NCBI GenBank assembly: GCA_964016885.1
Contig: OZ024745.1
Span: forward strand, 62,062,001 to 62,126,000
DNA from: Eledone cirrhosa
Lineage: Eukaryota
Reading direction: 5' to 3'
DNA: 64,000 nt
This document shows positions 5,116-63,817 of the stretch, one piece after another. Each line of letters opens with the position of its first letter. Position 1 is the first letter of the stretch. The position numbers and the translations under genes are program-made. Below the pieces are notes generated by a model that saw only the letters and a list, made by a program, of their open reading frames with translations, was not told where the DNA came from and searched no databases.

Positions 5116-6017
5116 AATGAAGTAATTCCGTCGGAAAAGTCCAGGAAAAAAGAGTGCTCTATGTAGGTAACAGAGCTTAATAGTTATGTAATAAACAACA
5201 TAAGGCAATTATTTCATTTACCAGTGGTTTCTTAAAAGCAAAAATATTTTGCTTTCAATCATCAGAATGAAAAAATCCTGGTGTATTTATTGACGTTGGA
5301 TTTAAAAAAAAAAATGCAATCTATATGAAAGTGAGGCTGGAAAAGGAAGAAGGAAAGGAAAAATAAAATAAAAAACACACATGCAAACACACACACACAA
5401 TTATATACATACACACATATGTATATATATACATACACACATACATACACACACATATATACACATACACACACATATATATGTGTATATATATACATAC
5501 ACATACATATACACATATATACATACCTAAATATCGACATATCCATACATACACATACATATATACAACCACACACACACATATACATATATATATATAT
5601 ATACACATACATATACATACAGATATACATACACATAGATACATACATACACACAATCATACGTATATACACACGTACATACATACACATACATACACAC
5701 ATATATACATGCATACATATGCATGCACAAAAATAGATAAATATACACACACCTCTACATACTCACACACACAAATAAATATAAGAAAAAATATATAATA
5801 ATAAAAAACATAAAAATGAATATAAAGACTATTATAATGTTGACAACGATACAGGCGACAAATAAATGAACAAACACACGTGGTAAGCAATACACACAAA
5901 TGCACGTACACATACATACGTAAAAATAAATACATACACACACTCTCACACATAAATATACATATACAAATACATAAACACATACATACCCATACACAAT
6001 TACATACACACACATAT

Positions 6018-6093
<76 letters not shown>

Positions 6094-6432
6094 GTATTGA
6101 AACTTGCAAACTTGACTGTCACCACATATTATGAACCTGAAGATTGCGAAAGCATGAAAGTACTTGTTCAATTAACACTTAGAATTTAATATTCTATCAT
6201 ACTATTTCATTATAATACCATTATAAATTTTAAAGGATTGTAAATAAAACGAGTAAATCAGACAAAGTTGGAATTCCTCTTATTAATATATATATACACA
6301 TACATACATAACCATACAAATATACACATACATATACATACATATCACAAACACATACATACAAATACAAACACACACATATATATGTGTGTAAAACTCA
6401 TTCTTAGATAATTCATATGAACCTTATTTAAC

Positions 6433-6765: not shown

Positions 6766-6960
6766 ATAAAAATAAAAATAAAAATAAAAATAAAAATAAA
6801 AATAAAAATAAAAATAAAAATAAAAATAAAAATAAAAATAAAAATAAAAATAAAAATAAAAATAAAAATAAAAATAAAAATAAAAATAAAAATAAAAATA
6901 AAAATAAAAATAAAAATAAAAATAAAAATAAAAATAAAAATAAAAATAAAAATGAAAATA
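6766..6960. repeat. (ATAAAA)n hexanucleotide tandem repeat, about 32 units
   Basis: Near-perfect repeat seen directly. Confidence 0.95.
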
Positions 6961-7206
6961 CAAAGTTGGGAATACGACAAATAATTAATTAAAAAATATA
7001 TATTTAGAAAAGGGTATAAATGCTTATAGCAGATTTAGAGCACTCAACAAGTTCCTGGAGCAAAAGATCAATGAAAATAATCATTAAATCACTATATGTA
7101 ATGATGCATATACATACACCCTTATACATATATACATATACACACATATATATATACACACACACACACACACAATCACAGAAATACACACACACATACA
7201 ATTACG

Positions 7207-7238
<32 letters not shown>

Positions 7239-7403
7239 TAGGAAAAAGTCTGACTCCACGGCAGAGTTCAAGCCTTTTCTGAGGCTATTATATATATACA
7301 CACAAAACCATTATATAAAAAAATATACATATATACGCACAAATATACACACGCCCATACACACACATTAAATCTATCTATATATATATATATATATATA
7401 AAA

Positions 7404-7447
<44 letters not shown>

Positions 7448-7451
<4 letters not shown>

Positions 7452-7610
7452 CAAGTACGATTTATTAAAAATTCATTACGTTTATTGATTGGTGACCCGC
7501 GTTTCGCTATTGATTAGCTCAAGGTTCGATCTCTATCGATTTGGCCCGACTCTTGACACAGGTTACCAATCAATAAACGTAATGATGGCTTAACAAATCG
7601 TCCCTGTATT
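7448..7610 (-). ncRNA. Type III-like hammerhead relic closed by a ~55-bp imperfect stem
   Basis: Minus strand: ...attggtaacctgt-GTC-[aagagtcg...tcgat agag atcga acctt]-GA-gcta-atcaa-tagc-GAAAC-gcgggtcaccaat.... The arms 7448-7502 and 7556-7610 are complementary, and the CUGANGA box is partly deleted. Confidence 0.5.
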
Positions 7611-7720
7611 GTTATATTACACTCTGTCTCGCTCTACACCTCGCCACTGACGCTGACGTTAAGCTAAACATCGAGTGCTCACCTGGGTGAGCTACAGTAA
7701 CTTCACGTTACACACCAAAT

Positions 7721-7893
7721 ACTATACACACACACGCAAACGCATGCGCAGAGAAGAAGACAAAAATAAATAAATAAATAAACAGATAAAATAAAAATGG
7801 CGTAGACATACAATACAGCAGTAGGAACATAATAGTACCACTGATGATATTGCAGATGTGCAATTGAAAATTAGAATTGGTACTCTGAAATAG
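7721..7893 (+). mobile_element. Penelope pseudo-LTR fragment with a degenerate hammerhead (7834-7884)
   Basis: Clearly homologous to 61671-61824, the 3' end of the Penelope element. Reads agtacca-CTGATGA-t-attgca-gatg-tgcaat-t-GAAA...tggtact. Confidence 0.75.
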
Positions 7894-7941
7894 CGATATA
7901 TATATATGAATGGAATTCTATAAGAATCCAACACACATAAA

Positions 7942-8030
7942 TTTCGGCAGAGAGGGAAAGTAGTGAGTTTTGATAAGTACCAAAAAGTACGAAACAGAGC
8001 TGTCAACTTATTTCCCCCTGTCTGCCGAAA
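7942..8030 (+). ncRNA. Type I hammerhead ribozyme, U3:A8 core variant, with extended stem I
   Basis: gtgagtt-TTGATAA-gtac-caaaaa-gtac-GAAA-cagagctg-TC-aacttat, with outer stem tttcggcaga..gggaaa / tttccc..tctgccgaaa. GUC triplet, cleavage predicted after 8004. Confidence 0.75.
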
Positions 8031-8070
<40 letters not shown>

Positions 8071-8074
<4 letters not shown>

Positions 8075-8579
8075 GTAATCTGAGTTTTTCGAATATTATT
8101 CGAAATAATATTCGAAAAACTCGGATTACATTTATTTTATTCAGTGCCATAGAGCGAAATTTTGTTTTTCTATTTGAACTTGGCAAAGCCGGCCATTTAT
8201 CGCTCGTATACAGGAAACTGACTGGCCAGTCTGCTGATATGCAAATCTGGCTGATCAGTGGATCTGCTAATATACAGATCTGACTGATCAGCCAGTCTGG
8301 TAATATGCAAATCAGGCCGATGAGTCTATATTTTCACTAGCTCTGACAGTTTGGCAGGTGAACAGTGAGCTGTACTGATGAAGGGTGATACCCAGAAACA
8401 TTAGTGTCTGCAGTTCTGTTCGAATGCCAACACAAAAGCAAGAATGAAGTGTTCATTCTACTGACATGTTTATAAAATTGAGGCTTGTTTGCATAATTGC
8501 AAACGAATCGAATGTTATTATTAATATTCGAAAACCTCAGATTACATTTATTTTATTCAGCCATGTAGAGCGAAATTTT

Positions 8580-8583
<4 letters not shown>
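8071..8583 (+). mobile_element. Non-autonomous PLE/retrozyme-like module in (TA)n
   Basis: 5' palindrome at 8071-8133, ~59-bp direct repeats at 8106-8164 and 8522-8580, an internal hammerhead, and TA runs on both sides. Confidence 0.65.
8360..8421 (+). ncRNA. Type I hammerhead ribozyme
   Basis: gaacag-t-gagctgta-CTGATGA-a-gggt-gat-accc-a-GAAA-ca-ttag-tg-TC-tgcagttc-tgttc. GUC triplet, cleavage predicted after 8408. Confidence 0.8.
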
Positions 8584-8610
<27 letters not shown>

Positions 8611-9988
8611 GCAGAATTCTAAGATGAGACATGTTTTTCAGCAAGTTATGTATAGTTCTGTATAGGATCCCTAAATTCATTCTTTGAGTAAAACTGAGGG
8701 AATTAGGTTCCGCTATTCGAACGTGGGATATATTAATGCTAAGATCTCAACTAATTGGTACATAGTCTATCAAATACGAACTGATATCAGCTGCTTCTAT
8801 ATAGAATTTACCATTGAGATTATCAGCTCTTGCAGAATTATTCAAACAATCATCGATTAGATCAGATACTCTTGCTGATAATACATATCCTACGTTTCCT
8901 TTGGCCGCTGGCTGTCGTCAGAAGTGCTGCAATTCAATTGCCTTTTTCTTCTGTCTATTATTTCTATTGAAACAGACAATGACAGGAAACCTAATCAACA
9001 CAACCTATATTACTATATTATCGCAACATCGACGTTATCCTATTATCTATTTTCAACATTTGAAAAGAGAAAACAATACTCAACGTGTGTACACCAATGG
9101 GAATTCTTACAACATTGCTAACAAAATTTATCCAGTTACCGATTATTTATCTATAACATACAGCGATTCTACTTTAACGAATTTGTAGCATTTGTTATTT
9201 ATATAATATAATGCAGTTTTTAAGCTCATATTACACCCGTGTTCTATCGCTTGTAACTTCTCAACAGTTCACCTAGAGGTTGAAACTCTGTGAAGCAGTG
9301 AATATGGGCAAAGGTATCTAGTATTTGTTTAAAGTAGTATTTATCTAATAATTGAACAATCCAAGAATATACTGGAAGTTAATTACGAAATAATTCTGAG
9401 CTTGTAAAACGAGACACAATCAATTTCTGTGTAACGAATACTGTTGTAAGTCTAGTATAATGTCGTACGTCTATAATCCACTGATTTAGACAATATGTTA
9501 ATAAGGCGCCAGAAAAAATAACATCATCCATGCTAAACTATTATTGTCCTAGTTTAGCTCAGACTGTTTCCAGTTTCTTCGGTTCTATATTTCTCAGGTC
9601 ACAAATGGTTTTAATCCCTCATCATATTATGAATATTGTAAAACCACAAAAAAGCAAGAAAGTATTGTATAATCTGTTGATAATCACTAATCATGAAGAC
9701 GTTGGCACACAGTGAGTTATTAGTAAATTACCGTTTCAAAAACAACAATATGACTGTTCCTAAAAGCAGTTCTAGTTTTAACTTCGTTAAAAGTTCTAAA
9801 GATTGGCAGAATAAATAAAGCGTCGATCGAAGTCAAATGTATTATATTTTCGAAATCTTCACCCTCATATCTTAGTGATATGTTTATCCTTGTTGCCTCA
9901 ATAAAGACAAAAATAATGTATCACTTAATTTTTCACTTAATTTTTCCTATCTCCCGAAATACCTGGACTTTTGCCTAAGTTATACAGA

Positions 9989-11456: not shown

Positions 11457-12504
11457 GAAGCAAAGAGAGTGCGGTATATGAATAATTGAAAGAACAAGAA
11501 ATGCGATGGAAAAGAGAAGACCGAATACGAGAATGAGTAAAGAGTCTTAGAATTGTAATTCGGACACTGTCATACAATATCCGGCTGGATATCGAAATGC
11601 AAATAGGTGAGGAAAATTACCGGGAGAAGAAATAAATTCTCGAGGTGAATTAATGGAAGTAATCTGAAAAGAAAGAAAAGCGAGACTCAGACTATGTTAA
11701 GAAAATAAGATTAACTGGATGGTGGGATATGTAATAGTAGAAGAATCAAAAGAAAAGCTTGAAGAAAGAAGAGCAACTCAAATGCCCAGGAAACCCAAGA
11801 AAGTATGTGAATTGCATGAGATAGCTATTCGATGCGTATTGCCGAAAGAAATGAAGAAAATTCTATCAACGGAAGACAAAGAAATGCAGATATTACATTC
11901 GTAATAAAAGAATTGCACGAGTTCAAAATAATATAGTTAGCAACAATATTTTTGGAATTGAACCTGTACTGCTTTATGCTTTATTGAAGTGAGACTATGA
12001 CAATTGTTTTCCAATATTGTAGCGCCAACATCTTTTTATCAACGGGTAGTTCAGATGATGAAATCAATAACTGCTGCCATGTAGGGAAAATAATATTGCC
12101 TAACATTTTCTTCGCAATATAATGAATAAGGCAAATGATAATAATAATTATGCAACATCAAAGATATTACATCTAACAATTCAGAATTCTCCTTGCTTCA
12201 TTGTGTCCTCATATATTTAATACTTGGTGTTGAGGGACAATCCACCAACACACGAGAAATAAGCCTCCTACCCATAATACATTTAAAAAAAAATATTTTT
12301 ACTTCTTTCGTTCATTAGACTTTTATCACATTAGGCTTACGGAACTCAATCAATCATATAGAGCCTAGTAACTATATTTTTAAGGAGCTAATTTTTATCG
12401 ATCGTGGTTTGTCGAATTGTAAGTGCATATCCCATATACGAACAGTAAATTTAAACACATACACATACATACAAACACATACATACAAACACATACACAT
12501 ACAT

Positions 12505-12795
12505 AAAAAAAGTCTAAAGTCCTGTCTTGAGCAAGAACGCTCATTTGGCCGGTGCTTATCCCAGTTTCATGGCGTGAAGCGACTGAGAGTACAGACCCCA
12601 CCCCCTCCTGGAAAGGACGCCAGTCCATCGCAGGGTTAAACCTCCATCTATTGCTGGTACTCATTTTCAACTGAGTATACTGGAGCAACGTGAAATGAAG
12701 TGTTTTGGTCAAGAACACAACACGCAACCTAGGAATCGAGTCCACAACATTATGATCGTAAATCCAACATCCTTACCACTAGGCCACGCGCCTCC
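12505..12795 (-). mobile_element. tRNA-derived SINE with V/Meta-SINE-like body
   Basis: Minus strand has A box TGGCCTAGTGG, B box GGACTCGATTCC, and body tgttgtgttcttga..aaacactt..ttgctccagt..aaccctgcgatggactggcgtcc..gtcgcttca..gaaac.gggataagc. Family assignment is from recall. Confidence 0.8.
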
Positions 12796-13373: not shown

Positions 13374-16300
13374 TTACAGATATATACTCAGAGTCGGCCC
13401 ATTCACTCGGGCCATTCTTGCTTCTCTCACCCATCTTTCAACAAAATGCTGGGAAGAGAGCACTTCCTTCTCTACTCTGATTTTCCTTTTCAAATGAAAT
13501 TTGAAAAAGTCAATCAGAGCATCACCGAAGAGGTAAGTGCTCGTCTTCAGCCCTTTCAAACGTGTCCACCATACTATCTCTTTCGCCATGGCCACCAGAC
13601 AGATAAAAACTGCCTGCCCTTCCCGGCTAAAGGAGGAGGACGGGGCAATCCTCACGATAGACTCAGATGATAGCTGGATCCGTCCTAAACGCGACAGCAG
13701 GTGTTCGACATAAACCCACAAGTCAGCAATTTTCGGACACTGGACGAGTGCGTGCAGGACGGTTTCGTCGCCCTGCGCGCATCTCGGACATGCCCGGCTG
13801 ACGGCACCTCCATGCCTGTAGAGTTTATCCCGAACTGGCAAGGCTCCTCGGTAGCACTGCCAGGCCAGAGATTTCTGGAAGTTGTCCATAGGCCCTGGCC
13901 CGAAAGTTCTTCCGAAGAGATTGGCTAGTTGATTTTCGTCGACGCCTAGAGTTTCCCCAAGTACGTCGTCGCTCTTCCCCTCCACTAATCCTCTATAGAA
14001 CGCCGAGGTGGAGTTTCCACCGATCACATTGCCCGATTGGTCGAGGGCTGTGAGCGCCTGAAGACATTCCAGTCTCCAGGCGCTCCCTCTCGGTCTTCGC
14101 TTGACCCAGGACTGCAGCTCCGTCAAGGAAACGAGCTGGGGAAAAACGCGTCTAGCAAACGGCGACCACACCTGATCACCGTCGAGGAAGAGGTGGAGAT
14201 GTCGTAGCCTGAGCGCGTGCCTACGCATCATCAGCCACGGCATGCCCAGCCCTCCACGTAGCGGGTGTTGACAACAGATGGACCGCCTGACCATCGGAGC
14301 ACGTCCCTTCCACAAAAAGCGAAAGAGCAAACGCTCCAGCGCAGTCAGGCGAGGCTTAGGACAAGGTACGACGGTTAGGCGGTAGCAGATGACAGACGCG
14401 ATGTACGCGTTAGCCACCTCCGCTCGACCTTTCAGGGATAGCTTCCTCTCCGCCCATTTCTGGGTGAGAGAAGCCACCCTGCTCGTCACCTCGTCCCAGT
14501 TTTTGTCCGTCTGGAGGTCCGGACCGAACCAGACCCCTAGCAATTTAACCGGTCCGTCCGTCCAGCGCCCGACGACGCTGTTGGACGGCATGGACCTGCC
14601 TCTCCAGGTGCCGAGCTGCAGGCCCACTGACTTTTCCTGGTTGATCATTGCTCCTGTCACCGCTTCGTATTCTCTTAGTGTAGTGCCGATCGCCTCGATG
14701 TGTTTGGCGTTCGACACCACTACGGTGACATCGTCCGCATATGCTGACACGGATCTTCCGCATCCTAGTTCGCGCGGGACTCCCCTCAACGTCTCCAGTT
14801 TGTGCAGTAATGGCTCGAGAGTCAATACGTACAAGAGGGACGAGAGGGGACATCCTTGGCGGACCGAGCGCATGATGTTGAACGGTTCCGACAGGTGACC
14901 GTTCACTCTCACCACAGAGCAGATGTCGCTGTGCATGGCAGCGATCCAGCCTCTGAAGACGGGCCCAAAGCCAGCCGCCCTCAGGACTGCCGCTAGGTAA
15001 CGATGGTCGACCCTATCGAAAGCTTTCGACTGATCTAAATTGATCAAGGACCCACCCGTGCCAGGTTCCTTAGCTACCCTCTCTATGATGTATCGCATGA
15101 GGTGGAGGTTGTCGTGGATGGATCTGTCGGGAATGGCGCATGTCTGCGCCTCTCCCACCAGACCACCAACGACAAGCGCCAACCTCTTTGCTAGCACCTT
15201 GGCCAAAATCTTGAACTCTGTGTTTAGCAGAGTTATGGGCCGGAAATTGTCTATGTTATCCCCCTTGATCGGGTCCTTTCTCAGCAGTGCCACCGCTCCT
15301 CGGCTCACAGAACTGGGCATTCTTTTGTTCTGTTGCCAGTTGCAGTAGACGTCCGCCAAGAGGCCTCCGAACAAGTCTGGCATCTGTACGTAAAGTTCAT
15401 AGGGCAGACCATCCAAACCAGGCGATTTACCCCTTGTGCAGCCAGTCATTGCCTCCCTTATTTCAGCGGCTGTTATCGGCTTTTCGCAACACTTCGCCTC
15501 AGTGGCCGAGAGCCGCGGCAGTCCGTCGAGGTAGACACTAAAGTCCATCCCTCTACCCGGCCCCCCGCTGCCCCCGAACAGCTGAGCGAAGTGTCGCTGA
15601 AAAGCTTCACACATTTGCCCGGGATCGAGTAGCATGCGCCCGTCGTGGTCCACCAAAGACCGGATCGTGGCTTTGTTGCCACGACGCGCCTCCGCCACTC
15701 GGGCCCATTGAACGGCTTTCGTCCCCTCGTGTCTGAGAGCACGCACCCTAGCTCTGACAACGCAGCCTTCGTGCTTTGCATTGAAGAATTGGTCAAGGGC
15801 CAATTTCGCCGCAAGCACGTCGGTCGCAATGCCTTTGCTAAGCGCCTCGTCTAATTTTCTAACTAGTTCTCCCTCTGCTCTATTTTTCTCTATTGCTAAA
15901 GCCTTACTAAACCTAATCGATTCTATTCTAATCGCTCTTTTCAGAGCAAACCACCACTTGTTGTTGACGATGGCCCCCGTCAACGCCCGCTTAACTAGTT
16001 CGCTAATCCGGTCTCTGTAGGCCTTGCGCGCTGGTAAGGACGCGTTTAGCTTCCAGTAGCCGGGTCCTCGTCTATGAAGCCTATCTAAGTCAAGCACACA
16101 GGTCACGAATTTGTGGTCCGTGTAGCTGACTATCTTGAATTGTGGACAGCCTATGCTAGACCTATCTATTTCCCTACAAAATACTCTATCTAGATATGAT
16201 CTGGATGACCCTATGCGGTTTGTCCAAGTCCACATTGGCACATTCGGGAAATCCAATCGGTACCTGTCAGATAGTTCAAAACGCCTGAGCAGGTTGGTCA

Positions 16301-38463: not shown

Positions 38464-38796
38464 GAAAATCAGTCATGTGGAACTATTGTCATCCTGCCTG
38501 ACGGTTTGAACCTTACAGAACCACCTGCCTCTTTGAGGTCAAATACAAACCCTACCAGCATCTACAAACTGACCAATGAGAATCAAGACTGTTCCTGCTG
38601 ACAACATCAAAATATTCCTAACAAGCTCATATGTCCCAAGGCTCTGATACCATCAACACTATACACACAGAGCTGGCATATCTAAGAACTGACTAACTGC
38701 CTGATGAGGTCATAGCCATTCAATGGCTATCATCGAAATATATATAGCAGTAAATAAAGGATTATGAGTTCATGCAATTGACTTATGTTTCGTCAC

Positions 38797-39750: not shown

Positions 39751-41973
39751 AGGCTGTAACTAGAGCTAAACTAAGCAGCTCACGAAGATACCGATTAGTT
39801 TATATAAAAAAACACACAAGTTCAGTACAAAAGGCTGACTAACTGTGAACATAGAATAAACTTACAGGAACGATGTGAACCACGTCTAGAATGAGTCAAC
39901 AACAAAGATAATAATAACAACAACAACAACAAAAATAATGATAATCACAATCCTGTACAATTGGCATGTAGGTGTAGATAGAGAACTAATTAAAATAGGA
40001 AGAAATCCCAATTTTCTAAATGAAACTTAATGGCATAAATCAGTAACGACTCATAGTAATCTTAGTGTCAAACGTCTATACACATGCAACAGCCCATACA
40101 CTCATATAGTCATTCACAACGGCACAAATATGTATCTACATACACACAACCACACGTATGCATATCTCTACACATATGCTCTATTAGAAGTCTCAGAAAT
40201 ACCCATTCATTCACACAAATAATCATTGCAAAATAAGGGATAATAGTAACAGACGCTCATACACCTACACAAACGTCTACATATACGCGTTAATTATATA
40301 TGTAGCATTTAACGAAGCAGCTGGTTGTAATTGAAAAAAAAAAAAGAAGATAAAGGAATGAACGCATCAAATTATAATATATGGGGTAATAATAGGTGCA
40401 GCAGAAGATGAAGTAACAACAGTAATACCGACTATACTATTTTCTGGTTTAGCATATAATATATTAGCAATTGGCAACCGCATTTCGATGTAGGAGAATT
40501 AGTTGAGTGCATCGACACCAGTAACATTTCACGTAACTAATTTATCGACAGATGTGATGTGAACGCATAACTGATGCTGGGTGAAAATAAATTGTACTTC
40601 GGCATTTAATCTATACTAAAATGCCGGTGGATTAGCAGAATAATTTGGGTGTTGAATAAAAGCAATGTGAAATTTGAGTCAGCTATTTTGCTTCTGAGTT
40701 CAAATTTCATCGAGGTAAACGTTGCAATTAAGCCTTTTATTTTTGATAGAATAAGGTATAAGTTACGTATTGTGGTCGATATAATCAACTAAACTCTCTC
40801 CACGAAAATCTGTAATTCAAATGCTGAAATTCAAATGCTGTTGATCTAGATGAGATTTGAAACATAAGTGTACAAATGCGATATTTTAATCATGGTAAAA
40901 CACTTATCCTGATATTAAAGGTGTGTGTCACCCCGGTGTTTAATAATGTTTGAAATATTATGAATTATGAAATGGAATGAAAGTGAAGAGAAAATAGCAG
41001 CCTGGATTGTAGAGGGTATAATGAGAGAAAGAACACAGGTAATAGATTCAGTATGAGAAGAGTAAGAGGGAGAGGAACCCGGATAGACTCTAACCCCGAT
41101 AAACAACATCCTTTCACAAATAAGAATTTAATTTGAGACACAAATTTAAACAACAGTAAATTGAACATTTGGCATAACAAGCAGTTATATTGAATATTTA
41201 GTATTCAGTAATGACACAAAATATGACAAAACCTTTTGTAATTAGACAAAGAAATAGAAGGAACATATGTCATTAAAGAACAAAACTCTTGGGAAATATG
41301 TTGTATGCTTCGAGACATTCAACAGAATTATATTTCGTCTGCATTCATTTTCCTTTTCTCGTTTACTTCCGTCAAGTTTCTTTTCTCCAAATCTCTTCCA
41401 GATGATTTAATCAGAATTTAATAATAATATTTAAAACATTATTCCACACCCGAGAATATAATTAAATAAATAAAACAACGGTGTAACCATCATAGTTTTA
41501 TATTTATTTTCTTTCATTTTATTAAACAGATAACGGTTGACAAAGTTCCATGCACACATACTCTACAGAGCGCTATGTACGTACATCTACACTAATGTGC
41601 ACAGGCCAGGTGTGATATAATAAGAATTAGATACAGCATTTTTATATGGTATTTCATATTTCCTACATAAAGACTTCAAATAATTGTATATGAGTAATAT
41701 ATACCGCAATTTTGATGAAGATCACACGTAAATATATGTATAGTGCCACAAATATGGAAAGCACACACAAATGTAAGTTTTCAGGTCTCCATGTATATAT
41801 ATATATATTGGTGTGTAATTCATTAGGGAAATCACAAGTCTGAAGAGCTAACGATGAATGGTCACGAGTGAATGGTCACCCAGAACCCTTTATTTGCTGA
41901 TCTGAAGTCGTATTCCAAAATACTCACAAAACACCTTTAGTGTCTCTGCTGCGATCTTTCGCACCTGCTATCA

Positions 41974-42050
<77 letters not shown>

Positions 42051-59796: not shown

Positions 59797-59875
<79 letters not shown>

Positions 59876-60183
59876 GGCGATGTGGTATCACTGTACCCAT
59901 CCATTAACATTGACTTTGATGTGGAAAAATGTGTGGCGATGATCATTGAGAGTGAGGTGGATTCTGCGACGTCGACACAGACGAACTGGGCCTCCTACTT
60001 AGACTTACCTATGATACTGACTACCTAGACAGCCATGACCTTAGACGTTTCTGCCCCAGTAGACCCATAAGGGGTAGACCCCCCCCCACCATAACCTCAA
60101 TGGCCAAAAAGACTCCCATGGGAAGGTGGATTGGGTGGACCAAAGCTATATGGACCCCCAAAACAATGATCAGGTAAGAAAAA

Positions 60184-61500
60184 ATGGTCGCACATGCAAT
60201 AGGGGTTAGTATCAAAACTACCCTAAAGGGCCACATATTCAAATTCTACACCCAAAATGAGGGAGCAGCCATTGGCGTCAGCATAGCTGGTGACGTTGCC
60301 AACCTTTTTATGGTATGGTGGGAAAGGAGACTCAAAGATCTCCTTGATGAGAGCTCCATAGACCTCATCATGTACTCTCGTTACGTAGACGACATCAATA
60401 TAGTAATAAGGACATCCCCACAAGAGAGTACTAACAAGTTTGATTTAGAACGTAGCACAATGGAAAGCATCCAGCAGATAGCTAATTCGATACACCAGAG
60501 TATAACTGTAACTATCGACTACCCTTCGAAACACCCTAACAATAGACTACCTGTATTAGACACGGAACTCTGGATTAACACTATAGACGAGAGAGCCCAA
60601 ATTCTCCACTCACACGATGCTAAACCCATGGCCTCAAAATACCTGATACTCAAAAACTCAGCAATGTCCAGTAGTGCTAAGTTTAATATTCTGATCGCAG
60701 ACTTGGTACGAGTGATGAAGAACGTGCCCCGCATGTGCAACCCAACAGAAATGGAAAGACACATCCAACACTTCATCAACCGCATGCAGTTCTCTGGCTA
60801 CAAACAAAGAGACAGAATCAGAGAATACGAAGGAGCCACGGAGAAGTATACGACCCTCATAGAACTGGACATGAAAGGAATTTTCCCATTATACAGGAGC
60901 AAATCATGAAATAGCTTATATAGGACTAGACATAAGATAGGGAAAGCCACCTCATGGTACGACAACCAGAGATACCAGAATGTCATGTTTGTGGACGCTA
61001 CCTCTGGAGGGAAATTAGCTAACCAGTGTAGAAAAGCCCCGAGAAAGACCCACTTAAAGATTAAGGTGGTAGAAAAGCCAGGAACCACCATAAAATCCCT
61101 GATCAGCAAAACCTACCCTTTTAAGAAAACTCACTGTACTAATAGGAAATGTATTATATGTAAAGTAAACCCCCGGATAAACTGTAAGACTAGAAACGTA
61201 GTCTATAGCATAAGATGTACAGAAGGTACTTGCAGAAACATGACAACAACATACATAGGCGAGACAGCTCGTAGCATAGGTGAAAGGATAGACCAACACT
61301 GGGGGGGGGGAACTAAAAGGACGAAATAACGGTTCAGTACTATACGAAGATGCCAGACAACAACACGACGGTAACATAGACAACATAGAAATTAGAATAA
61401 TATCTAAACATTGAAATGACCCAGCAGATAGGCAAATCAGAGAGGCCAGCGAAATAGAACTTAGAAGGCCAAGGCTAAACAGAAAAAATGAATGGAATAA
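60184..61500 (+). pseudogene. Penelope polyprotein remnant (RT core, thumb, GIY-YIG endonuclease)
   Basis: ORFs 60184-60909 and 60985-61329 are in one frame, separated by stops. Confidence 0.88.
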
Positions 61501-61789
61501 CAACAACACCCAAACAAACAACACTGACCTAATAGAACTATAAATAAATAAATAAATACATAGACAAGCACAATAACAACAAACACATATAAACACACAC
61601 TAGTAAACTAAAATAGAATACAATAACCAATACACAGTCACCCAAACACGAACACACATCAAACAAAACACTATACACACACGCAAACGCATGCGCAGAG
61701 AGGACAAACAAAATAAACAAATAAATAAATAAATAAACAGACTAAATAAAGATGGCGTAGGCATACAATACAACGGGAGGAAATATAAT

Positions 61790-61839
61790 AGCACCACTGA
61801 CGATGTTGCAGATGTGCAACGAAAGAACTTTGTTAGACT
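61790..61839 (+). ncRNA. Degenerate hammerhead in the Penelope pseudo-LTR
   Basis: agcacca-CTGACGA-t-gttgca-gatg-tgcaac-GAAA-gaac-TT-tg. The 3' strand of stem I is eroded. Confidence 0.55.
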
Positions 61840-62029
61840 ATATATATGTGTTTGTGTCTATATTGTATCTGTATTTTTGACCGTTGGTCAGTCAATGGTA
61901 ATATTGAGGACCGAATAAATTAAATTAACTGATATAAAAGACACAGAAGCGAAAATCAACCAAACAGTGAGTGTGTTCTGTTATTAATTCTGGCAATATT
62001 ATTACACAAATACGACCCTCCCCAAGTAT

Positions 62030-62997
<968 letters not shown>

Positions 62998-63015: not shown

Positions 63016-63746
63016 GTATTTCTCGTACTAGTTTACTTTCTAGCACTGGGTGGTTGCTGGCCCTGTGATTGGGGTAGAAACCTTTATTTCGTGGTAGTCT
63101 CTTTAGTATTTTGGCCCCCCCTTTGTTGACCCGTCACCGTACGATACACGCACCTATACCTCGTATAAGGGTCCCTTTATTTCCGTCCCACCTAGTTTAT
63201 TTTTATTATTATTATTTATTTTTTTATTCTTCATCATATATATATATATTTTTTTAAAAATTTATTTATCTATTCTTTTATTCACTTATTTGTTTATTTA
63301 TTTATTTATGTATTTATTTAGCCTAGCAATAGCGAGAGACTTTAGTCTTAGTATCCAGACTTTGCTTATTTTTTCTTTCTCTCTCAGTATCTTTTATAGT
63401 TTTACCCTTCATTGTTCTACTTACCGTTTCGACTCCCCCCCTCCCCAGTACCCTCTTTGACCTCACGCCCAGCTGTAGCTGGCACTACCAACGCATGAAT
63501 GGGTCTACTCCACCCCCTCTCCCTTTTTCTCCTACCGGCAGGTTTAGCTACCCCTTCCCCCACCAATTTGCCATCACAGATTTACTACTAACTTATGATG
63601 TGATCAATCCTGGTGATTATCTCTTTGACCATATATGGAATTACCCCTTGATAAGCTCGGCTATTTAAATACCAGAATAAATTTTCATTCAGTACAGAAT
63701 TAGCCGTCGAAACGGCTTGAGCTCAGCCGTCGGGGTCTTACTTGTT

Positions 63747-63748
<2 letters not shown>
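63016..63748 (+). mobile_element. Pseudo-LTR of the second PLE family
   Basis: Ends in a hammerhead followed by ggggtcttacttgttcc, which matches 62872-62888. Bounded by TA runs. Confidence 0.65.
63643..63736 (+). ncRNA. Type I hammerhead ribozyme, U3:A8 variant with a large stem II loop
   Basis: acccc-TTGATAA-gct-cggcta-(37 nt)-tagccg-tc-GAAA-cggct-tgagctc-agccg-TC-ggggt. GUC triplet, cleavage predicted after 63731. Confidence 0.8.

Positions 63749-63817
<69 letters not shown>

Follow-up and report, generated by a model that had tools for sequence, protein, structure and literature searches.

In this study, we analyzed a cluster of hammerhead-like ribozyme sequences, hereafter the island, at positions 7448-8583 of a 64,000-nt window of the Eledone cirrhosa genome (assembly GCA_964016885.1, contig OZ024745.1, 62,062,001-62,126,000 of the forward strand; all positions below are those of this window). 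The window is AT-rich and contains 42 TA runs of at least six units. A first-pass annotation, made from the letters alone, had divided the island into four unrelated hammerhead modules, numbered here 1 to 4 from left to right, and had attributed them to several families of Penelope-like elements (PLEs) or retrozymes. After analyzing the motifs, their predicted folds and contig data from outside the assembly, we read the island as an accumulation of short fragments of at least five unrelated high-copy families, probably left by TA-targeting PLEs and their non-coding passengers. The cluster is real and holds two intact motifs; its origin is ordinary, and it is mostly common repeat debris. The pieces, the arrays around them, one further remnant upstream and a longer reference element downstream are as follows.

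7239..7290, minus strand: fifth remnant, a decayed 3′ end of family F with GAAA box, helix III and the 3′ strand of helix I
7375..7448: (TA)37 array, the putative left target
7449..7553, minus strand: inverted segment of family A, with helix II interior and 3′ arm (7553-7506), GAAA (7505-7502) and helix III (7502-7495); the family is predicted to be cut after 7494, and some 45 nt of 3′ tail follow
7554..7710, plus strand: direct segment of family A, from helix III onward with about 145 nt of 3′ tail (from the alignment of the arms and the contig record over 7566-7713)
7711..7863, plus strand: family B, a Neptune-like PLE represented by its 3′ end; the hammerhead is of the minimal type, with a core at 7841-7847, an extra U and a 6-bp helix II
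7862..7895: repeat C, high-copy, the putative source of the GAAA and of the 7-bp "helix I" partner of module 2
7896..7907: (AT)6 spacer
7909..8033, plus strand: family E, type I hammerhead with a U3:A8 core and a long extended helix I, ending at a TA array
8034..8071: (TA)19 spacer
8069..8135: family D, 5′ foldback palindrome of 67 nt with 92.5% self-complementarity
8102..8582, plus strand: family D, non-coding unit with a type I hammerhead, 419-bp period, about 1.2 copies
8583..8610: (TA)14 array, the putative right target, followed by unique DNA with single-contig coverage at 8618-9200
59872..61845, plus strand: reference copy of family B, a 5′-truncated, broken Neptune-like PLE between TA arrays, with a hammerhead core at 61797

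The outside data on the locus consisted of three contig sets from one sample. Single contigs covered 8618-9200 at a depth of 7-12 with 0 mismatches; this stretch served as the single-copy baseline for depth ratios and, because of the perfect match, places the sample in the same or a very close species. Expressed as summed contig depth over the unique flank, which is a ratio for one sample and no copy count, the depth was approximately 9,000-13,000x at 7508-7566 (family A), 3,000-5,000x at 7626-7684, 12,000-14,000x at 7803-7861 (family B), 13,000-17,000x at 7862-7920 (the bin of repeat C) and 1,000-1,300x at 7980-8038 (family E), and it was 18,000-67,000x in the interior of family D. A depth near 1 at 8039-8097 was set aside, as contigs break at the TA run there. 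The modules are multicopy, as the annotation supposed, with every island piece at about 1,000-67,000x the depth of the unique flank; the pieces exceed unique DNA by three to five orders of magnitude in depth, and they differ approximately 50-fold among themselves. This spread bears on the proposal that the island is one composite, Terminon-like element with several terminal hammerheads, amplified as a unit. The close spacing and the common orientation of most pieces would suit such an element. However, the unequal depths, the divergence of contigs at 7553, 7862 and 7863, and the family B copy at 61.8 kb, which lacks these neighbors, have already largely refuted it, and its remaining probability is negligible.

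To count motifs, we used a descriptor of type I and type III hammerheads that admits any Watson-Crick 3:8 pair and tolerates an unpaired base on each flank of helix II; it was shaped after the modules had been seen, so the odds against shuffled sequence are somewhat flattering. By this descriptor the island contains two full motifs, with cores at 7970 and 8375 and predicted cuts after 8004 and 8408, compared with a mean of 0.005 in dinucleotide-shuffled sequence: 15 of 3000 shuffles held one full motif and 0 of 3000 held two. Half motifs (core, helix II and GAAA) numbered three against a mean of 0.045, with two in 2/3000 shuffles and three in 0/3000. The density of motifs in the island is thus above that of shuffled controls. 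Across the whole window, the descriptor found five full matches, where 60 block shuffles averaged 0.08. The claim of four hammerhead modules stood in part: modules 3 and 4, both on the plus strand, are complete by the descriptor, and modules 1 and 2 are incomplete by it. An Rfam search of the window returned 0 families at the gathering level. Self-BLAST revealed no common sequence among the module stems, as had been noted, and TA runs occupy two of the three gaps (7896-7907 between modules 2 and 3, 8034-8071 between modules 3 and 4, none between modules 1 and 2), in keeping with the earlier remark that they separate most modules.

Hammerhead motifs elsewhere in the window were treated with caution. 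Descriptor matches at 13550 and 45190 lie inside open reading frames (ORFs) of long interspersed nuclear elements (LINEs); they were judged probable chance, and the half motifs at 9629 and 37332 and a marginal match at 6137 were set aside as probable chance as well. All eight chosen motifs lie within 237 nt of a TA run, compared with 34% of non-LINE sequence within 250 nt; the set was picked by hand (9629, 37332, 13550 and 45190 being excluded), and three of the eight are the island itself, so the proximity of hammerhead motifs to TA runs is only suggestive. Full type I matches also occur near TA arrays at 5205-5285 (minus strand) and 38690-38760 (plus strand), both with a predicted cut after GUA; in one, helix II has 12 bp, and in the other, its region measures 26 nt and helix III is TA-rich. 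A short TA-flanked element at 41808-41975 carries a CUGAAGA string without a matching GAAA fold and is possibly a decayed end.

Judged by its predicted fold, module 3 (7942-8030, plus strand; family E) is the best hammerhead of the island, with every core and helix feature present. The U3:A8 assignment made earlier was upheld: the core UUGAUAA occupies 7970-7976 and is accompanied by GUC, with a predicted cut after 8004. Helix I has 8 bp and a distal extension, helix II has 4 bp with G10.1-C11.1, and helix III has 3-4 bp. The Rfam entry HH9 scored 21.5 bits on this module (E 0.021; gathering score 52). In family E, the loose-end consensus has a G at 8001 opposite the variant 7968 T>C (compared by hand), so that both partners of the second helix I pair are altered and the pair is kept; among the rows listed, neither 7970 nor 7975 varies. 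U3:A8 is a known natural covariation that is reported to be active (PMC3088659), and it marks about 1,300 motifs tied to Cercyon PLEs of Schistosoma (PMC4209133). Family E shares U3:A8 with the PLE hammerheads described in the latter paper but differs from them by combining it with a canonical 4-bp helix II and a long helix I.

Module 4, as annotated, appears to be a plus-strand hammerhead as well. Its fold spans 8356-8426, with the core CUGAUGA at 8375-8381, GUC and a predicted cut after 8408; helices I, II and III have 8, 4 and 3-4 bp. All hammerhead elements are present, but unpaired A residues (8382 and 8394) border helix II at its two ends. Family variants at 8421-8423 extend distal helix I (compared by hand). 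The module belongs to family D, whose first 85 nt recur 419 nt later as a direct repeat (8089-8173 and 8508-8589) whose final bases extend into the TA array. The foldback at 8069-8135 is an inverted, truncated copy of the 3′ end of the unit; miRNA matches at 8067-8137 reflect generic hairpin similarity to this foldback and were rejected. Contig depth rises toward the 3′ end of the family, and one contig in one of three runs (X2) contains a head-to-tail joint, 8535>8152. The sole overlapping open frame of at least 150 aa had 0 Pfam matches. The unit has 38% GC, and a circular fold of 8171-8589 gave z = -6.8 against 40 shuffles, a stability that comes partly from an internal palindromic repeat. 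At 8207-8326, a 33-nt unit is repeated 2.9 times with inverted symmetry and forms a long hairpin.

These features suggest a retrozyme-like unit. Retrozyme units are taken to be non-coding, 150-450 bp long, below 50% GC and provided with a type I hammerhead, all of which applies to family D. Animal non-LTR (non-long terminal repeat) retrozymes are described as tandem units of 150-450 bp with type I hammerheads, those of mussels measuring 350-390 bp (PMC7229834), and a preprint derives them from PLE termini (10.64898/2026.07.22.740005). Family D resembles them in being non-coding, in its 419-bp period, 38% GC, self-paired circle and head-to-tail joint, and in its very high copy level. However, it differs from an active retrozyme, which would have two ribozymes, in its single hammerhead and in a foldback end of the PLE type; the copy here is a 1.2-mer with one hammerhead, not a series of tandem units each with a motif. 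In a contig search, the family D pattern had 0 viral matches, and two bacterial matches were judged chance, both stopping at the 20-mer.

Module 2 (7834-7884) did not hold up as a hammerhead. It contains a core, a 6-bp helix II and GAAA, with a 7-bp complement downstream, and thus matches half the descriptor only; no A15.1-U16.1/H17 lies in register before helix I. Its left part belongs to family B, since 7711-7863 is 83% identical to 61660-61819 in the downstream reference element. Behind 7863, 37, 34 and 39 contigs of the three sets continue with the ending found at 61.8 kb and then (AT)n, and before 7862, 31, 31 and 28 contigs arrive from unrelated upstream sequence. The family B copy is therefore likely truncated at 7863, and repeat C is likely a separate high-copy repeat. 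Contigs diverge in both directions at 7862-7863, and we regard module 2 as probably the junction of a truncated family B end and repeat C, so that the annotated helix I and GAAA would come from two elements. A family B subfamily with a non-canonical hammerhead ending of its own, and no junction, is the less likely account of this module. That the 7-bp complement and GAAA stand in roughly the right places is improbable as an accident, and the two family B endings can be aligned with gaps. On the other hand, the contig sets depart at one point from opposite sides, one with the family B ending and one with unrelated sequence, and the fold has no cleavable triplet in register.

The reference copy of family B at 59872-61845 gives this family its identity. 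In frame, it encodes a reverse transcriptase (RT) thumb region, YVDD, a C-x4-C-xx-C linker and YIGET (GIY-YIG). Three homologues align over 59879-61299 by tblastn, and for the RT piece at 60178-60906 the best longer homologue, first of 62 matches, is a named RT protein of Octopus vulgaris with 67% identity, which points to a cephalopod as the probable host. An RVT_1 match (E 1.2e-4) fell under the Pfam cut-off, and Pfam reported no GIY-YIG for the window piece or the three homologues. By its homologues and motifs, family B is an endonuclease-bearing (EN+) PLE, with RT followed by GIY-YIG and a hammerhead near the 3′ end. The C-terminal GIY-YIG after RT and the linker, which fits CX2-5CxxC, are shared with both Neptune and Nematis PLEs (PMC8557442); the label Neptune-like goes by motif. 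Among 32 related metagenome loci, many of which end too early to show a 3′ hammerhead, a compact hammerhead of the same minimal type stands 700-840 nt beyond the RT match in three (L003, L004 and L019), and two (L001 and L004) have a TA run, 3′ of the element in both. Long-helix matches in L005 and L032 were discounted as probable chance. In the distant PLE relatives L008 (around 2425) and L019 (around 2495), U3:A8-type cores are seen at 3′ ends.

Module 1 also had to be revised. The long hairpin at 7448-7610 is genuine (-71 kcal/mol, minus strand), and the annotation had taken it for helix III of a type III-like ribozyme. However, the copy in the window lacks helix I, and the descriptor found 0 CUGANGA-type cores on either strand of it, because the inverted segment begins downstream of the core. 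The hairpin consists of the inverted and the direct segment of family A, whose arms align with each other from helix III onward. Alignments stop at 7553 in 184, 180 and 169 contigs, and their continuation holds a CUGA(U/C)GA core on the minus strand followed by 12 nt, the first 10 of which pair 9/10 with 7506-7515 (compared by hand). Since these loose ends hold it, the core is carried by family A even though the window copy has none, and the loose ends give 60 nt between core and GAAA, with inner hairpins; 3 bp of helix I are visible.

Two majority variants occur in family A, 7497 C>G and 7515 T>C. With the former, which accounts for about 95% of depth, the eight bases from A15.1 to U16.1 become a perfect palindrome ending in GUC, and this palindrome reads as a type I helix III of the PLE kind. 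Three opposite-strand joints, 7449>7653, 7472>7607 and 7472>7655, were each found in one or two contigs. The stretch being too short for an alternative, they admit a single reading, in which the contig follows the left arm on the minus strand and then the plus strand past the right arm; a fourth joint, 7497>7562, is compatible with it and ambiguous. They imply that in other family A copies helix II leads to the cut site and on to the 7600-7690 tail with no inversion between. The window copy is thus likely an inverted segment joined to a direct one, with a hairpin specific to this locus, and the type III look is likely a by-product of an inverted 5′ copy in a type I family. Joints 7551>7664 and 7685>7601, at higher depth, represent further recurrent arrangements, and some family A copies may share the inversion. 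Type III hammerheads are described in plant LTR retrozymes, HDV-like (hepatitis delta virus-like) RNAs and some insect genomes (PMC7936874); module 1 resembles them in its open, long "helix III" with GUC on the 5′ arm but has no core and no helix I hairpin, and other copies are uninverted and type I. The view that family A is of type III and that 7553/7554 marks a deletion was accordingly dropped in the light of the joints and the 7497 variant, and a reading as a miniature inverted-repeat transposable element was rejected, as the family runs about 100 nt past the right arm. A 20-letter family A pattern had 0 matches in metagenome and GTDB contigs.

Other PLE debris is found in the window. The fifth remnant, absent from the earlier list, is 78% identical over 50 nt to 63701-63750, and the same family F end follows a DKT-bearing PLE ORF piece at 62850-62890. 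That piece belongs to a Hydra-like PLE fragment at 62103-62890 (plus strand), set in TA arrays, with a 190-bp near-perfect foldback (62103-62295); the ORF piece has two homologues at 48-53%. A second Hydra-like piece at 63016-63750 (plus strand) carries a motif at 63648 with a U3:A8 core, a helix II region of about 55 nt and a helix III of about 6 bp (by eye). The DKT motif is given for the Hydra clade of EN+ PLEs (PMC8557442), which the piece at 62.2-62.9 kb resembles in this respect, and family F is probably a Hydra-like PLE family. Together, 59.8-63.8 kb forms a second TA-separated pile-up of Neptune-like and Hydra-like pieces.

The annotation had proposed repeated insertion of several PLE or retrozyme families at one (TA)n array, of which ribozyme-bearing ends were left, and the high-copy pieces of unequal depth agree with this. 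The observations beneath it are the multicopy pieces, the PLE identity of family B, two pieces that start with inverted copies, a partial tandem and two complete type I folds. A PLE origin is further indicated by family B, the 3′ end of an element with RT and GIY-YIG in the same window, and by family D, with its foldback and partial tandem. Foldback 5′ ends are present at 7449-7610, 8069-8135 and 62103-62295. An inverted 5′-truncated copy and a partial tandem have been described for PLEs (PMC8557442), and families A and D display these signs of PLE insertion, namely 5′ truncation, an inverted 5′ copy, a partial tandem and a TA target; the window pieces resemble EN+ PLEs in all of them. (TA)n is the target of Naiad and Hydra PLEs, Neptune has a microsatellite bias, and octopus Naiad and Hydra families are listed with (TA)n (PMC8557442 and its supplement). 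PLE endonuclease cuts both strands of AT-rich DNA and RT starts near the end of the element (PMC11167929), and new PLE insertions have a tendency to fall within or next to older copies (PMC6765202).

We therefore propose a putative course of events. A PLE endonuclease would nick either (TA)n or an older insertion at its AT-rich end, and RT would copy element RNA from near its 3′ end, usually halting after 100-500 nt. As PLE hammerheads lie approximately 20-200 nt from the 3′ end, each remnant would keep all or part of one. Several families would have inserted repeatedly at one TA array, short and 5′-truncated, with later truncation at the border of B and C. Hammerheads would then cluster because insertions cluster, not because the locus needs them, and the island copies at this locus are most likely passive.

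Several observations weigh against this account. No ORF is linked to families A, C, D and E, so their dependence on PLEs rests on layout and location. These families had no match in the window to the pseudo-long terminal repeat (pLTR) of an autonomous PLE, and the 32 PLE loci gave one 22-nt match (E 0.025). Target-site duplications are unreadable inside TA arrays. Of the variant rows, joints and loose-end rows from one sample, the family reconstructions draw on 40 of 78, 15 of 90 and 18 of 1728, respectively. For the whole window, the seven half motifs are not clearly beyond chance, as 60 shuffles averaged 1.9 and reached at most 6. Additionally, A, B and C abut without a TA run; simple independent insertion into (TA)n is insufficient here, and their contact would need a later deletion or insertion beside an older end.

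As no TA separates A, B and C, template jumping is conceivable, in which a PLE RT moved between family RNAs and part of the island, a chimeric A-B-C insertion without TA, arose in one event. The direct segment of A, B, E and D all lie on the plus strand, A joins B and B joins C without a TA run, with a 2-nt overlap of B and C at 7862-7863, and the direct segment of A starts about 10 nt or less from the predicted cut site of its family. However, only one of four segment starts or ends lies near a predicted cut site, family B is cut before its own 3′ end, which is equally consistent with deletion, and four co-oriented pieces would arise by chance in one case in eight, family F at 7239-7290 being opposite. 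A single chimeric event seems improbable to us, and serial insertion of separate families is the reading we retain.

The annotation also suggested that a plus-strand transcript is cut at 8004 and 8408, releasing a 404-nt RNA that could circularize. The two positions are correct as descriptor predictions: the cores of both modules are complete and face the same way. The chemistry of such ends permits ligation (PMC7229834), and U3:A8 is, as noted above, reported to be active. Nonetheless, alternative folds with the core paired lie 5-6 kcal/mol below the hammerhead fold in both monomers; nearest-neighbor folding is weak evidence on this point, since no active control was folded and tertiary contacts are ignored. 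Published PLE hammerheads cleave poorly (PMC4209133) or need protein (PMC11167929), 8 of 9 tested Xenopus retrozyme dimers were uncleaved (10.64898/2026.07.22.740005), and RNA-seq showed no read ends at the cut site of an anole PLE (PMC11167929). Moreover, the stability of the 404-nt fragment comes largely from the TA run and the foldback of the family D DNA, and the circle needs read-through transcription as well as cleavage by two non-standard cores of unrelated families. Excision and circularization of this RNA are thus highly doubtful. A more natural circle would be the approximately 419-nt family D unit, from tandem copies elsewhere.

A homogeneous (ATAAAA)33 array lies upstream of the island at 6766-6964. 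Head-to-tail arrays of LINE copies of about 6 kb, with apurinic endonuclease, RT and zinc-finger (APE-RT-zf) domains, occupy 13.1-31 kb and 44.7-56.6 kb on the minus strand, with approximately three and two copies; they are L1/Tx1-like by domain order, and some have open ORFs of 1150-1204 aa. The arrays have (AAT)n on their flanks together with a short repeat that also recurs at 12.9, 39.3-39.7 and 56.7 kb, and they may reflect site-specific insertion. A sequence at 12500-12790 resembles a short interspersed nuclear element (SINE) and may be similar to the core SINEs of cephalopods.

Compared with the PLE hammerheads of PMC4209133, the motifs described here are familiar in many respects. Those too are type I, lie at element 3′ ends and belong mostly to single truncated copies, and U3:A8, an extra base before helix II and a palindromic helix III are among their published traits. 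Family B is like them in the extra base before helix II and the 6-bp helix II, and family A in the palindromic helix III and short helix I. In Fig. S3 of that paper, one of 56 examples has an unpaired A like that of module 4 (an extra A before GAAA); by row order, the columns being lost in the PDF, it is a Cotesia bracovirus PLE. In contrast, 0 of the 56 have a helix II longer than about 25 nt, compared with the branched 60 nt of family A and the approximately 55 nt at 63648, and none is from a cephalopod. Unlike the EN+ PLEs of PMC8557442, the island has no coding sequence, and multi-family nests are absent from the published description consulted. The least ordinary part of the island is thus the inferred 60-nt branched helix II of family A. 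Our literature search, whose coverage left out most subscription papers and some supplements, found no account of these families, of a 60-nt PLE helix II or of a cephalopod hammerhead survey, and the word "ribozyme" occurs 0 times in a 2026 repeat annotation of Octopus vulgaris; the remaining supplements may list mollusc or long-helix hammerheads, which bears on novelty. The kinds, hammerhead-bearing PLE ends and a retrozyme-like unit, are known, and the members appear new.

For the study of such loci, the island carries a caution: PLE foldback insertions can mimic type III hammerheads, and junctions can fake hammerheads. Common descriptors would overlook the long branched helix II of family A, which may point to a class of PLE hammerheads that has gone uncounted. 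Family D provides a ready test for abundant circular RNAs of about 420 nt in cephalopods. We speculate further, while holding it very improbable, that TA arrays are nurseries in which stacked, co-oriented hammerhead ends excise hybrid circles (here 8005-8408) that PLEs copy into new retrozyme families, in a host with about 10,000 copies of a hammerhead with a 60-nt branched helix II; the stacking would come from shared targeting or from RT template jumps, and the hybrids would be cut from read-through transcripts. If true, hybrid circles between unrelated families would be a route for the birth of retrozymes.

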